From an uncultured bacterium (GTDB lineage Bacteria; Krumholzibacteriota; Krumholzibacteriia; WVZY01), in the NCBI GenBank assembly GCA_964464035.1, contig CAYXEN010000002.1, positions 26,003 to 90,002 on the forward strand: DNA of 64,000 nucleotides. Reading direction: 5' to 3'. Shown piece by piece: positions 10,778 through 29,505 of this stretch (the first letter of the stretch is position 1; every line of letters starts with the position of its first letter). The translations under genes were made by a program, and so were the position numbers. Below the pieces are notes generated by a model. It was not told where the DNA came from and did no database searches. It saw nothing but the letters and a program-made list of their open reading frames with translations.

Positions 10778-10854
10778 GGGCGATTAGCTCAGTTGGTTAG
10801 AGTGCCTGCTCGACACGCAGGAGGTCACTGGTTCAAATCCAGTATCGCCCACCA
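10778..10854 (+). tRNA. tRNA-Val (anticodon GAC)
   Basis: Cloverleaf: acceptor GGGCGAT/ATCGCCC, D-arm GCTC/GAGT, anticodon stem CCTGC/GCAGG, loop TCGACAC, T-arm ACTGG-TTCAAAT-CCAGT, encoded CCA. Position 33 is C rather than U. Confidence 0.8.
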
Positions 10855-17755: not shown

Positions 17756-18034
17756 TTGCAAAACCTGAAGAAATTCCACTTGTTGGATGAGAAGGTTGAG
17801 CAGACCATCAAGAAAATCAGCGGCCTACAGGCCAAGTATCAAACGCTCAAAGAAGAGAACATCGGCTTACAGAAAGAAATAAAAAGTTTGAAGGAACGTA
17901 ACCGCGAGCTGACCATGGAGATCGAGGGTCTCCGGGAAACAAACAGCAAGATCGCGGGAAGTTCAATCGACAAGGAGGAGATCAAGAAAAGAATAGATCG
18001 GGTCCTGGAAAAGTTCGGGGAACTTCAACTCTGA
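17756..18034 (+). CDS. Coiled-coil ZapB-like cell-division protein
   Basis: 92 aa, heptad-rich (LQAKYQTLKEENIGLQKEIKSLKERNRELTMEIEGLRE). Immediately upstream of zapA. Confidence 0.5.
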   Translation: MQNLKKFHLLDEKVEQTIKKISGLQAKYQTLKEENIGLQKEIKSLKERNRELTMEIEGLRETNSKIAGSSIDKEEIKKRIDRVLEKFGELQL

Positions 18035-18104
18035 TTTCAGGTGCCTCGATTGCTTCCCGATGCCGGGTTGGTTCGATTGCGGCAAGAAAGGGTATTGAGA
18101 CCAG

Positions 18105-18395
18105 ATGGAAGAATCAAACGTCACTACGGTGGAAATATTCGGACGTGAGTACAAGATAAAAGGTTTCGCCGACGAGAAGTACATACTCAAGGTAGCCAAG
18201 TACGTGGATGCAAGGATGAAAGAGCTTGCCAAGGGTTCTTCGTTTCCTTCCCACGACAAGCTGGCTATCCTGGCCGCGCTGAATATCGCGGATGAGTTGT
18301 TCAAGGGAAAAGAAGAAGCATCAGAAACCTTTTCCATGGTCGAGCAGAAAGCGGAAGAGCTCGTCGAAAAACTCGACCGAAGTTTCCAGGCGTGA
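18105..18395 (+). CDS. zapA: Cell division protein ZapA
   Basis: 96 aa. VTTVEIFGREYKIKG...YILKVAKYVDARMKEL pattern of ZapA. Confidence 0.75.
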   Translation: MEESNVTTVEIFGREYKIKGFADEKYILKVAKYVDARMKELAKGSSFPSHDKLAILAALNIADELFKGKEEASETFSMVEQKAEELVEKLDRSFQA

Positions 18396-18422
18396 ACGTT
18401 TTGATTTTTCCCGCGATTTCTC

Positions 18423-18452
18423 TTGATACGCCCGCCGCGGTGCTGGTAGAAT
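18423..18452 (+). promoter_or_regulatory. Near-consensus sigma-70 promoter driving the 6S RNA candidate
   Basis: TTGATA-18 nt-TAGAAT directly upstream of the predicted RNA 5-prime end. Confidence 0.45.
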
Positions 18453-18458
18453 TATAGA

Positions 18459-18646
18459 AATTCCCTACCATGTTCGTGATGGAGTGGTGATTATTGAGCC
18501 AACACCTGGTACGTAGGAAGCCCAAATCAAGTTTGTGATGTCATGCCCCCGAGCCGGGGAAGACAGAGCTTGCTTTGAGGGCATCCACTTGAAATATCAG
18601 GTTCAACAGTTCCCTACACACGGCATAGAGTGGGGAATTTTCTTTT
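18459..18646 (+). ncRNA. ssrS: 6S RNA (SsrS) candidate, about 188 nt
   Basis: Sits immediately downstream of zapA, the conserved zapA-ssrS arrangement. The 5-prime end AAAUUCCC pairs with the 3-prime end GGGGAAUUU to form a closing stem. It shares blocks with E. coli 6S: 5-prime ...AUGUUCG..., central CUUGAA...GGUUCAA...CGGCAU. Ends in a hairpin plus U-run. Flanking ORFs in this region are implausible Arg/Gly-rich frames. Confidence 0.6.
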
Positions 18647-18753
18647 GCATCCAGTTTCCCCTCATGCGCCCGATCCACGAATTCCCAAGACTTTCAGCAA
18701 AGCGGGGCATATCCCCGATGCAGTGCCATTCAACATAGATAGGGGGACAAGCG

Positions 18754-20319
18754 ATGACAAGTTACTGGATATACATAGTCGTCGGCCTGGCGACGGCTGT
18801 AGTTGGTTTCCTCGTCGGCGCGATCCTCAGCAAGCGTATCGCATCGAGCAGCATCCTCAACTCGAAGAAGCTGGCCGAGAGCATCATCGCCGACGCCCAG
18901 AAATCGGCCGAGAATCTTCGCAAGGAAGCCGAGATCGAGGCCAAGGACAGCTACTTCAAGATGAAGATGCAGTTCGAGGAGGAGACGAAGGCTACCCGCG
19001 AGCGTCTCGAAAAAGTGGAAGAACAGCTCAAGGAGAAGGAGAACAACCTCAACCGCAAGCTCGATTATCTGGACAAGAAAGAGGCGGGCCTCAGCGAGAA
19101 AGCCAAGGCCCTCGAGCACAAACAGGCCGTTCTCGAAGAGCGGCTCGAGGAATCCAAGCGCCTGATCGCGGAAGAGAACGTGCGGCTGGAGAAGATAGCC
19201 GGGATGAGCAAGGAAGAAGCCAAGCGAATCCTCATGAAGAACCTGGAGAGCGAGGCACGGATGGAAGCCGCCAAGAGGATAAAGGAGATCCGGGACGAAG
19301 CGGAGCGCAACGCCCAGAAGGAAAGCAAGAAGATCATCACGCTGGCGATCCAACGATACGCAGCGGAACACAGCGTGGAAACGACCGTGTCGGTGGTGGA
19401 TCTACCCTCCGACGAGATGAAAGGGCGTATTATCGGCCGCGAAGGAAGGAATATCCGAGCCTTCGAGACCGCAACGGGCGTCGACGTTGTCATCGACGAC
19501 ACGCCCGAGGCGGTGATACTGTCCAGTTTCGATCCGATCAGGCGGGAGGTTGCCAGGCTCTCCCTCCAGAAGCTGGTCGAGGACGGAAGGATCCACCCCG
19601 GACGAATCGAGGAAGTGGTGGAAAGGACGCGGCACGAGCTCGAGGAGAGCATTCTGGAAACCGGCGAACAAACCTGCATGGACCTGAACATACACGCCAT
19701 AAACATAGAGTTGGTCAAGCTCCTCGGGCGGCTCAAGTACCGCTCGAGCTACGGGCAGAACTGCCTGAGACATTCGGTGGAGGTGTCGTACATAAGCGGG
19801 ATGATAGCGAGCGAGCTCAAGCTGGACGCCCAGACGGCGAAACGGGCTGGCTTGCTTCATGACATCGGCAAGGCGGTCACACACGAGATGGACGGCACGC
19901 ACACCGAGATCGGAGCCGAGCTCGCACGGCGTTACGGTGAGAGCGACATCGTTGTGAACGCAATAGCGGGCCATCACGAGGACGAGGACGCGATATCCCT
20001 GTACACGCCGATCGTCGGCGCCGCCGATGCGATAAGCGGAGCCCGTCCCGGAGCGCGGCGCGAGACGCTGGAAACCTACGTGAAGAGACTCGAGAAACTC
20101 GAGCAGGTGGCCGACGGGTTCGACGGCGTGGTCAAGTCATACGCCATCCAGGCCGGAAGGGAGATCAGGATAATGGTAAGCCACAAGAAGGTGGACGACT
20201 CGGAGGCCGCCGACCTGGCTTACGAAATCTCGCGCAAGGTCGAGAAGGAGCTCGAGTATCCGGGACAGATCAAGGTGGTCGTGATCAGAGAGACGAGAGC
20301 CGTCGATTACGCCAAGTAA
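18754..20319 (+). CDS. rny: Ribonuclease Y
   Basis: N-terminal TM helix, long coiled-coil, KH domain ([13 protein letters not shown]), HD domain (LLHDIGK). Confidence 0.9.
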
Positions 20320-21129: not shown

Positions 21130-22020
21130 GTGGAACTGATAGACGGCAAGGCGCTGAGTCTCCAGATCAAGAAGGAAGTAAGGGCAAAGGTCGATTCGCT
21201 CCCGGGAGGGAAGCAACCGTGTTTGACGCTCGTGCAGGTGGGCGACGATCCGGCCTCGAGCGTGTACGTGCGCAACAAGATTCGATCGTGCGAGGAATGC
21301 GGTATCAAGTCGGAATACATGCATCTCGATGCCGGTATCCCGGAGGGCGAACTACTCCACGTTCTTCGAGAGCTCAGCCGGAACGACTCCGTGCACGGGA
21401 TCCTGCTCCAGCTGCCGCTCCCCGGCCATCTCGACGAGGACAAGGTCGTATCCACCATCGATCCCGTCAAGGACGTGGACGGTTTCCATCCCGAGAATAT
21501 CGGATTGCTGGCGTCGGGAAAGCCGAGGTTCATCCCATGCACTCCAGCGGGCATAATCGAGATGCTGAGGCGTTATGGAATAGACACCAGAGGAAAGGAC
21601 GCCGTTGTGCTGGGTCGGAGTCTGATCGTGGGAAAGCCGATGGCAATGCTCCTCTCGCAGAAGAGCGATGCCGGCGATGCGACGGTCACGATCTGCCACA
21701 GCCGCACGCGGGACCTGAAGGCTCACACTTCGTCCGCGGACATTCTGGTCGTCGCCATGGGCAAGGCGCGATTCGTCCGAGGCGACATGGTCAAGGAAGG
21801 CGCCGTCGTAATAGACGTTGGGATCAACCGGGTCGAAGACGAGAGCAGGAAGAAGGGATACCGTCTCGTGGGCGACGTGGACTTCGAGGAAGTGGCGCCG
21901 AAGACATCATACATTACGCCGGTTCCCGGGGGCGTGGGGCCGATGACGGTGGCCATGTTGATGGTGAACACTCTCAAGGCCTACGGCATCCAGGAAGAAG
22001 CAAGCGATGGCGGTCATTGA
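21130..22020 (+). CDS. folD: Bifunctional methylenetetrahydrofolate dehydrogenase/cyclohydrolase
   Basis: GTG start. LIDGKALS, GILLQLPLP, VVLGRSLIVGKP, PVPGGVGPMTVAML. Confidence 0.9.
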   Translation: MELIDGKALSLQIKKEVRAKVDSLPGGKQPCLTLVQVGDDPASSVYVRNKIRSCEECGIKSEYMHLDAGIPEGELLHVLRELSRNDSVHGILLQLPLPGHLDEDKVVSTIDPVKDVDGFHPENIGLLASGKPRFIPCTPAGIIEMLRRYGIDTRGKDAVVLGRSLIVGKPMAMLLSQKSDAGDATVTICHSRTRDLKAHTSSADILVVAMGKARFVRGDMVKEGAVVIDVGINRVEDESRKKGYRLVGDVDFEEVAPKTSYITPVPGGVGPMTVAMLMVNTLKAYGIQEEASDGGH

Positions 22021-27633: not shown

Positions 27634-29355
27634 ATGCTCAAGTCACTTCACATACGAAACCTTGCAGTCGTTGAGGACATCACGCTCACGTTCGACCGCG
27701 GCCTCAACGTGTTGACGGGATCGACCGGAGCGGGAAAGTCCCTCATCCTGGGCGCGGTCAATCTCCTGCGGGGTTCGAAGATCGACGGCCGGATGCTCAG
27801 GAGGGGTGAGACGAACGCCCTGGTAGAGGCTACGTTCATCACCGAGGAAGGTGCGGGTCTCCCGCTGGAGGGCGGATCGACAAGGGGGGAGATCACTCTC
27901 GCCAGAAAGATCAATGCGGGAGGCAGGAGCAGGGCATACGTAAACGGCAAGCCGGTTCAGCTGAGTACGATGATCGAACTTGCGCGGGACTTGATAGAAC
28001 CCCACGGGCAGAACGAACAGATGAAACTCAAGTCCCAGGAGAACCACATCGCCTACCTCGATGAATACGCGGGCCTGGATGGGATGAAAGAAGACTACGG
28101 ACGGCTGCTCGGGGAATTCGATTCGGCTCGAAGGCGACTCGACGATTTCAACCAAAGGATGATACTGGTTCGGGAGAAGAGGGAGATCCTGGAACACAGG
28201 ATCGAGGATCTCTCTCGCGCCAACTTGTTGGAGGGGGAGAAGGAGGAGTTGGAGAAGAAAGTGGCGATGCTGGAGAACTCCCATCAGATCCTCGAGGGTG
28301 TCGGCATGGCCTGTGACCTGCTCTACGAGAACGAGCAATCCGCATGGAGCCTCGTGAGAAAAAGCTCCGAGGCTCTGGAGCGCATCGCGGGAGTCGACGA
28401 ATTGTTCTCAGATTGCGTGGAGCGGCTGGAGAGCGCCGGGATAGGCATCGCGGAGTGCGTGGACGAGCTTCGGGATTATCTGGACCGCGTGGACTGCGAC
28501 CCTTCCGAACTCGAAAGCATGCAGTCGCGATTGGCATTTCTCCAGCAGGTGGAGAGACGTTACGGCAAGTCGATCGACGAGTTGATCGCCGAAGCGGACA
28601 AGTGGCGTGAAGAACTGGATTCGTTGGAACTCGAAAACGAGCAGAGAACCCGGTTGGAAAAAGAAGTCCGCGACAAGCTGGAGCGCCTGCGAGAAAAGGC
28701 CCTCGAGCTGAGCAGAAAACGAGAGCGGGCCGCCGCGCAATTGGATCGCCGGGTGACCTCGTCGCTCCGAGAGATGCGCATGCCGGACGTGGTGTTCAGG
28801 ACCGATATCGAGTTTGTCGAGTCCCCGGACGGGATAATGGACATCGAAGGAAAGAAGATCAAGATTTTCCAAGACGGGATCGATCGGGTGGAATTCTTCA
28901 TAATCACCAACAAGGGGGAAAAGGAAGGCCGCGTCTGCGAGATTGCTTCGACCGGCGAAACCTCGAGGATAGCTCTGGCACTCAAGGATGTGATAAGCTC
29001 GAGGAGGAAGAGCAGCGTTCTGGTATTCGATGAGTTGGACGCGGGAATAGGCGCCGACATGGGGGAAGCGATTGCGGAAAAATTGTTGTCCTTGAGCGGG
29101 AAGTACCAGATCATAGCGATAACCCACATGCCGCAGATCGCGGCGGCTGCGCACAGGCATCTCGTGGTTTCCAAGCGGGTGGAGGGAGGCAGGACGCGAG
29201 TCGAGGTTGAAGAGGTGCGGGGTGGCAAGAGGGAAGAGGAGTTGGCCAGGATGCTCGGCGGCGGGGGCGACGACATGGAGAAAGTACTTGCCTTGGCTTC
29301 CGAAATGTTGCATGCAAGAAAAGCCCGTCGAGATTACGAAGGCATGCGCCCGTAG
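27634..29355 (+). CDS. recN: DNA repair protein RecN
   Basis: 573 aa. N-terminal Walker A (GSTGAGKS), long coiled-coil, C-terminal signature/Walker B (VLVFDELDAGIG). Confidence 0.9.
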   Translation: MLKSLHIRNLAVVEDITLTFDRGLNVLTGSTGAGKSLILGAVNLLRGSKIDGRMLRRGETNALVEATFITEEGAGLPLEGGSTRGEITLARKINAGGRSRAYVNGKPVQLSTMIELARDLIEPHGQNEQMKLKSQENHIAYLDEYAGLDGMKEDYGRLLGEFDSARRRLDDFNQRMILVREKREILEHRIEDLSRANLLEGEKEELEKKVAMLENSHQILEGVGMACDLLYENEQSAWSLVRKSSEALERIAGVDELFSDCVERLESAGIGIAECVDELRDYLDRVDCDPSELESMQSRLAFLQQVERRYGKSIDELIAEADKWREELDSLELENEQRTRLEKEVRDKLERLREKALELSRKRERAAAQLDRRVTSSLREMRMPDVVFRTDIEFVESPDGIMDIEGKKIKIFQDGIDRVEFFIITNKGEKEGRVCEIASTGETSRIALALKDVISSRRKSSVLVFDELDAGIGADMGEAIAEKLLSLSGKYQIIAITHMPQIAAAAHRHLVVSKRVEGGRTRVEVEEVRGGKREEELARMLGGGGDDMEKVLALASEMLHARKARRDYEGMRP

Positions 29356-29418
29356 CTCAGTGGATAGAGCACCGGCCTCCGGAGCCGGGTGCCGCAGGTT
29401 CGAATCCTGCCGGGCGCA
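29346..29418 (+). tRNA. tRNA-Arg (anticodon CCG)
   Basis: Acceptor GCGCCCG/CGGGCGC, D-arm GCTC-AGTGGATA-GAGC, anticodon stem CCGGC/GCCGG with loop CTCCGGA, T-arm GCAGG-TTCGAAT-CCTGC. CCA not encoded. The 5-prime end overlaps the recN stop. Confidence 0.85.
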
Positions 29419-29505
29419 AATCCACCTTCCGCTCTCAACCCTCGAGACAGGGAACATCATGCCGGAGCGAGGACGTTGGACGCCCAAGCGGAAAGGAAAT
29501 GGACC

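Follow-up and report, generated by a model that had tools for sequence, protein, structure and literature searches.

A very probable 6S RNA gene between zapA and rny in the genome of an uncultured bacterium

6S RNA is a widespread small RNA. It folds into a rod with an open bubble, resembles a melted promoter, and by binding the RNA polymerase holoenzyme that carries the housekeeping sigma factor sequesters it as growth slows (PMC7641849, PMC8414754). In beta- and gammaproteobacteria, its gene, ssrS, belongs to the conserved gene array ZapB-ZapA-SsrS-(FAU1)-EVE, and in E. coli the RNA is processed from a dicistronic ssrS-ygfA transcript (PMC7641849). A passage of PMC7641849 that points to a further reference ascribes the 3' end of the E. 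coli RNA to Rho-dependent termination and trimming. In B. subtilis, the gene for 6S-1 RNA lies near rarA (PMC8414754). In this study, we analyzed an element in a 64-kb stretch of DNA from an uncultured bacterium; this whole stretch is referred to as the window, and its coordinates are used throughout, on the + strand unless stated otherwise. An earlier note on this DNA had proposed a probable 6S RNA between zapA and rny, and the proposal was borne out by a full-length match to the Rfam model of the 6S/SsrS family, RF00013 (80.5 bits, E = 2.9e-14). The evidence as a whole is best explained if positions 18459-18640 (+) are an ssrS gene for a canonical 6S RNA with its own sigma-70-type promoter and a rod fold, and we put the probability of this reading at about 0.95. 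The element is an ordinary representative of a well-known RNA family and occurs in the known zapB-zapA-ssrS arrangement. Its membership in the family rests on sequence, structure, and covariation.

The entire 64-kb window was scanned against all 4227 Rfam families at their gathering thresholds. Three matches reached the gathering score, two tRNAs and the 6S/SsrS RNA, and no further family did so in the window. The tRNAs are tRNA-Val(GAC) at 10778-10854 and tRNA-Arg(CCG) at 29345-29419, both on the + strand. For RF00013, the Infernal/Rfam search that the earlier note had put forward as a check gave an end-to-end match at 18459-18640 (+) that spans the whole model (positions 1-187 of 187), with a score almost double the gathering score of 46.4. 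The match begins at 18459 (AATTCCC), one nucleotide after position 18458, where AAATTCCC, the 5' end proposed earlier, starts. By the model, the gene body is 182 nt long; with the U-rich tract TTTTCTTTT included, it reaches 188 nt, and the family size of ~180 to 200 nt fits. The earlier figure of about 188 nt thus holds only when the tract is counted. A covariance model built from 21 sequences of the lineage, R1, had this gene body as its sole match, and no second 6S copy was found with it in the 64-kb window. R1 is specific to the lineage: it does not recover E. coli ssrS at E ≤ 0.01 and is uninformative on the wider family.

We also considered that the match might have arisen by chance or might mark a structured RNA of another kind, such as Ms1, 6S-Flavo, or an unrelated small RNA. 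In a permissive Rfam scan of positions 18000-19000 (E ≤ 1), RF00013 was the sole significant family. The sole other match, to ctRNA_p42d at 18608-18648, is at chance level (18.3 bits, gathering score 50; E = 0.66) and probably reflects the shape of a hairpin followed by a U-tract; nothing of substance speaks for a non-6S identity. The E value of 2.9e-14 obtained against 4227 families, no other of which came in at E ≤ 0.6, argues against it, as do covariation that fits the 6S architecture and sequence blocks that are positioned as in E. coli ssrS. We give such an identity practically no chance of being correct.

The annotated locus of E. coli K-12, in which zapA is followed by ssrS (b2911, 183 nt) and then by fau, served as the reference for comparison. 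The two RNAs are alike in length (182 nt in the window and 183 nt in E. coli), share the architecture of closing stem, central bubble, and apical stem, and are each encoded immediately after zapA, on the zapA strand, behind a sigma-70-type promoter. The block ATGTTCG is at position 12 of both RNAs, and the positions in the window RNA and in E. coli ssrS are 37 and 36 for TGAGCC, 130 and 133 for CTTGAA, 142 and 144 for GGTTCAA, and 163 and 167 for CGGCAT. The blocks AUGUUCG, CUUGAA...GGUUCAA, and CGGCAU had been claimed as common to E. coli 6S RNA, and all four do occur at matching positions. The RNAs differ in the 5' side of the bubble, which reads CCAACACCU in the window and CCGAUAUUU in E. 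coli, and in the U-rich tract after the 3' arm, which is a feature of the window. They differ also in the genes downstream, which are rny and then ymdB in the window but fau/ygfA in E. coli. To our knowledge, E. coli is without RNase Y, the product of rny. B. subtilis, like the bacterium studied here, has RNase Y. Its 6S-1 RNA (bsrB) is one that we take to resemble the window RNA in its rod shape, in a 5' bubble with a ...CC(G)AAC motif, and in a product RNA that starts with G, whereas the genomic context differs, near rarA in B. subtilis and between zapA and rny in the window.

The fold of the RNA was derived both from the single sequence and from relatives. The minimum free energy (MFE) of the 182 nt is -65.6 kcal/mol, with a z score of -3.7 against dinucleotide shuffles. 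The MFE fold contains a long closing stem and an apical stem, and local pairs partly fill the central bubble, so that the open bubble rests on comparative structure and not on thermodynamics. For the comparison, 21 elements that follow zapA in metagenomic loci and a related genome were aligned with MAFFT by sequence alone and folded with RNAalifold, with no input from Rfam. The consensus comprises a closing stem, a large central bubble, and an apical stem, with 42 pairs in seven helices; the earlier note had suggested a fold check of the central bubble and terminal stems, and RNAalifold recovered both from the 21 sequences. At least one compensatory double change was seen in 26 of the 42 consensus pairs. 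Standard pairs fill 89% of the cells, compared with 34 to 46% when the 3' partners are slid by 1 to 3 columns, and there are 126 double-change cells, compared with 29 to 44 in the slid controls. None of 500 column shuffles equalled any of the observed covariation measures. The rod-like 6S architecture is kept by compensatory changes.

Mapped onto the window, the 5' arm of the closing stem (18460-18478) pairs with the 3' arm (18619-18638) through 17 pairs with small bulges. The two helices of this stem, helices 1 and 2, are 90 to 93% paired, with a compensatory change in 8 of the 17 pairs. The pairing of the 5' end, AAATTCCC from 18458, with the 3' end, GGGGAATTT at 18632-18640, as a closing stem had been predicted and is what the consensus contains. 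A short internal helix (18484-18487 with 18612-18615) follows, in which all four pairs covary across the relatives; it is weak in the window sequence, with one G-U pair and one U-C mismatch. The bubble is flanked by a helix that pairs UGAGCC at 18495-18500 with GGUUCA at 18600-18605 in the Rfam alignment and that appears in the RNAalifold consensus as 18497-18500 with 18600-18603, 93% paired. The two sides of the central bubble, AACACCUGGUACGUA at 18501-18515 and ACUUGAAAUAUCAG at 18586-18599, roughly 15 and 14 nt long, take part in no pairs in either the Rfam or the RNAalifold consensus, and C41, A43, A44, and C45 of the RNA (18499 and 18501-18503) are invariant in 21 of 21 sequences. Beyond the bubble, the apical stem joins 18516-18542 to 18562-18585; internal loops interrupt it, and a hairpin at 18547-18559 caps it. 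Its helices, 5 to 7, are 86 to 91% paired and carry a compensatory change in 14 of 17 pairs.

The genes around the element are arranged in the order pheT-zapB-zapA-[6S]-rny-ymdB-folD, with pheS-pheT preceding the array. The zapB-like coiled-coil gene (17756-18034, +) is the first of the zapB-zapA-6S unit and matches the Pfam family ZapB (PF06005; E = 6.5e-10, 39.8 bits against a cut-off of 31.5). The genes that the earlier note had named as flanking the element were confirmed by their domains: zapA (18105-18395, +), directly upstream of the 6S RNA, carries ZapA (PF05164; E = 6.3e-22), and rny (18754-20319, +), the next gene downstream, carries the RNase_Y_N, KH, and HD domains of RNase Y. The zapA stop codon ends 63 nt before the start of the 6S RNA, and a gap of 113 nt separates the 6S RNA from rny. 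This gap contains a small G+C hairpin, GGGGcatatCCCC, at 18699-18712, with no T-run after it, and, 7 nt upstream of the rny ATG, the purine-rich AGGGGGA occupies the place of a ribosome-binding site. The order and strand of zapB, zapA, and 6S are those of the ZapB-ZapA-SsrS array of beta- and gammaproteobacteria. The window differs from that array in having pheS-pheT before and rny-ymdB-folD after this core instead of FAU1/EVE; the fau/ygfA gene (5-formyl-THF cyclo-ligase), frequent but not obligatory in the array, is absent downstream of ssrS in the window. The third gene after the 6S RNA is folD (21130-22020), for a folate one-carbon enzyme, and the proteobacterial gene after ssrS, fau/ygfA, also encodes a folate enzyme; the parallel may be a coincidence. 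The remainder of the window has the look of an ordinary, densely packed chromosome with genes mostly on the + strand, and the composition profile around the 6S site revealed nothing unusual.

Three open reading frames overlap the element, 18535-18738 (+), 18301-18525 (-), and 18541-18678 (-), and the region might thus encode a small protein. These frames exist mechanically, and that is all that favors a coding function. None of the three has a Pfam match, even at E ≤ 0.1, in agreement with the earlier judgment that the frames are implausible. In the relatives, sequence changes are compensatory across the helices, and gene calling in the source assemblies predicted no gene at this site. The overlapping frames were rejected as genes on these grounds, and a coding function for the region is almost certainly wrong. 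The main importance of the element is for annotation: the 358 nt that separate zapA from rny are neither empty nor the site of a protein gene but hold ssrS, a label that any Rfam-based pipeline would apply.

Upstream of the 6S gene body, the promoter scan found a -35-like hexamer TTGATA at 18423-18428 and an extended -10 element TGgTAGAAT at 18444-18452, with the -10 hexamer TAGAAT at 18447-18452. The site has 10 of 12 consensus matches, an 18-nt spacer, and, two bases ahead of the -10 hexamer, a TG; 0.5 such sites would be expected by chance in a 1-kb stretch. It is the near-consensus TTGATA-18-TAGAAT promoter that the earlier note had read after zapA, and it recurs among relatives. The criteria of the scan were applied to the window and 37 related loci with an RF00013 match, with the condition that the -10 element end 4 to 12 nt before the RNA start. 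A promoter-like site was present at the equivalent place in 16 of these 38 loci, compared with 0.5% of 7308 anchors placed at random in those loci. The remaining loci may use another promoter type, or their RNA may be processed from the zapA transcript. In the window, the Rfam match begins 6 nt after the end of the -10 hexamer, which fits a start at about A18459. The RNA would begin at about A18459 and would end in, or just after, the U-rich tract at 18638-18646. The promoter-like site, together with the U-rich tract at the 3' end, is an indirect sign that the element may be expressed as a discrete, abundant small RNA.

The U-rich tract TTTTCTTTT (18638-18646) directly follows the closing stem. 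Of 37 loci with a complete RF00013 match, 23 have at least six T residues in the corresponding 9 nt, a density reached at 1% of random positions. The terminator scan called no canonical short-loop hairpin with a T-run at the 3' end of the RNA. An alternative local hairpin can form at 18608-18639, in which AGUUCCCUAC (18608-18617) pairs with GUGGGGAAUU (18630-18639) around a 12-nt loop region at -12.4 kcal/mol (RNAfold, last 36 nt). It escapes the terminator scan because its loop exceeds 8 nt. The hairpin draws its 3' strand from the 3' arm of the closing stem, and the U-rich tract follows immediately. Comparable 3' hairpins of -7.6 to -12.4 kcal/mol occur in the nearest relatives, L001, the closest related genome, and the metagenomic loci L009-L016. 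Either the closing stem or the local hairpin could act as a terminator hairpin. The earlier statement that the RNA ends in a hairpin and U-tract is upheld for the U-tract, which is present and conserved; for the hairpin, the only candidates are the long-range closing stem and the local hairpin with the 12-nt loop region. The wording is defensible, though this is no textbook terminator. Within 18608-18646, and in the equivalent stretches of L001 and L009-L016, (A)GUUCCCUAC repeats the 5' end of the RNA, AAUUCCCUAC, which gives the 3' arm GUGGGGAAUU two possible partners, the 5' end or the local copy. In the window, L001, and L009-L016, the arrangement looks like a dual-use terminator and closing stem, in which covariation cannot separate the two pairings because the 3' arm is invariant in this group.

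The same region bears on how rny is expressed. The promoter scan found no promoter-like site on the + strand within 18641-18753, and rny follows the 6S element in 29 of 37 related 6S-bearing loci, which makes read-through plausible: transcription from the 6S or zapA promoters may continue into rny. With no canonical terminator and no separate rny promoter, the 6S RNA might also be cut out of a longer zapBA-ssrS-rny transcript instead of being a self-contained unit. A stronger version of this idea is that the element is a long structured 5' leader of the rny mRNA, which acts in cis and gives rise to no discrete small RNA. The lack of a called intrinsic terminator after the element, the lack of a promoter-like site on the + strand from 18641 up to the rny start at 18754, and the frequency with which rny comes next are all in keeping with a leader. 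However, the element matches the model of a trans-acting family from end to end, and it also occurs after zapA without rny as the next gene, being followed by ymdB in L015 and L086, by other genes in L023, and by fau in E. coli. In addition, a defined 3' end is suggested by the conserved U-rich tract, which 23 of 37 loci have after the 3' arm. Read-through into rny would in any case not make the element a mere leader, since E. coli 6S RNA is also processed from a dicistronic transcript, ssrS-ygfA (PMC7641849). We therefore consider it highly improbable that the region is only a leader, and an ssrS gene remains the preferred reading.

A more speculative extension of the ssrS reading, which we regard as rather unlikely, places the 6S RNA in a widely conserved zapB-zapA-ssrS-rny-ymdB unit in which partial termination sets the output of RNase Y and YmdB and RNase Y in turn matures or degrades the 6S RNA. 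The candidate terminators would be the closing stem with its U-tract or the alternative hairpin at 18608-18639. It is compatible with the findings: neither an rny promoter nor a strong terminator was found, and rny follows 6S in 29 of 37 loci. If it is true, the unit couples a global brake on transcription to the main endonuclease of RNA decay. The zapA-6S-rny synteny flags such a possible link between the expression of 6S RNA and that of RNase Y.

By homology with the 6S RNAs of E. coli and B. subtilis, the rod would mimic an open promoter and would occupy the active-site cleft of the RNA polymerase holoenzyme with the housekeeping sigma factor, dampening transcription as growth slows. Upon nutrient upshift, the polymerase would use the 5' strand of the bubble as a template for a short product RNA (pRNA), predicted to start opposite C18503 or nearby with a sequence of approximately 5'-GUUGGCUCAAUAAU. 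Synthesis of the pRNA would unzip the bubble-flanking helix, and the freed 3' strand would refold by pairing UUGAA at 18589-18593 (within CUUGAA at 18588-18593) with UUCAA at 18602-18606, as in E. coli 6S RNA, which would release the polymerase. The pRNA start near C18503 and the UUGAA/UUCAA hairpin are predictions by position; the invariant C41, A43, A44, and C45 would be consistent with a template role of the 5' side of the bubble. Polymerase binding, pRNA synthesis, growth-phase regulation, and the exact ends of the RNA are features that we infer by analogy with these described systems.

The occurrence of the element was followed in related genomes and metagenomes. A search of GTDB genomes with RNase Y yielded three loci, one in a Chitinivibrionia (Fibrobacterota) metagenome-assembled genome (L001) and two in Bacteroidales (L002 and L003). 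L001 is the closest genome, with an RNase Y that is 83% identical and a 6S RNA of 75.3 bits; in the two Bacteroidales loci, neither the Rfam model nor the lineage model found a 6S RNA within 3 kb upstream of rny, and these two loci did not help the comparison. By its closest hit, the host would be a Chitinivibrionia-like member of Fibrobacterota. The same 6S element, again at 80.5 bits, is present in three other assemblies with an identical ZapA (L004-L006). Eighty metagenomic loci that encode ZapA relatives of 38 to 64% identity were also collected, and 36 of them have an RF00013 match directly downstream of zapA and on its strand. With R1, the element is found after zapA in 49 of the 80, and in 51 of 83 loci when the window, L001, and the two Bacteroidales loci are added. 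The conservation of the zapA-ssrS linkage, which the earlier note had stated, is thus attested by the E. coli annotation, by the published array (PMC7641849), and by the 36 metagenomic loci with RF00013 matches. In L015 and L086, 6S is followed directly by ymdB, with no rny, and a Fau relative lies downstream only in L023, L034, L038, and L039 among the related loci. The order pheT-(zapB)-zapA-6S-rny-ymdB recurs in many metagenomic loci, for example, in L009 (1289-4073) and L014 (2501-4953).

The zapB-zapA-6S arrangement, described for beta- and gammaproteobacteria, is therefore also present in a Fibrobacterota-like lineage and in many uncultured bacteria, in whose arrays RNase Y and YmdB usually come after 6S in place of fau. 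This distribution suggests that the linkage between zapA and 6S is old or has been selected repeatedly. The frequency with which zapA, 6S, and rny occur together is the only mildly new point, and it amounts to a minor comparative note. A text search of the literature that did not extend to the two main surveys of 6S distribution and synteny (Barrick et al. 2005; Wehner et al. 2014) gave no account specific to the 6S RNA of this lineage. In nine metagenomic loci (L018, L025, L029-L031, L058, L075, L080, and L087), rny starts only 89 to 224 nt after zapA and no 6S element was detected; in some lineages, 6S has apparently been lost from the position after zapA or has moved elsewhere. Seven other loci have an element after zapA that falls below the gathering score of RF00013: L040 (2168-2345), L042 (1736-1911), L050 (2816-2991), L060 (1984-2154), L062 (1662-1831), L076 (2824-3000), and L077 (2825-3002). 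Their R1 scores are 76 to 104 bits, with L040, L042, L050, L076, and L077 at 90 to 104. It follows that a subgroup of the 6S RNAs of these uncultured bacteria goes undetected at the Rfam threshold. A tRNA lies just upstream of zapA in several of the seven loci.
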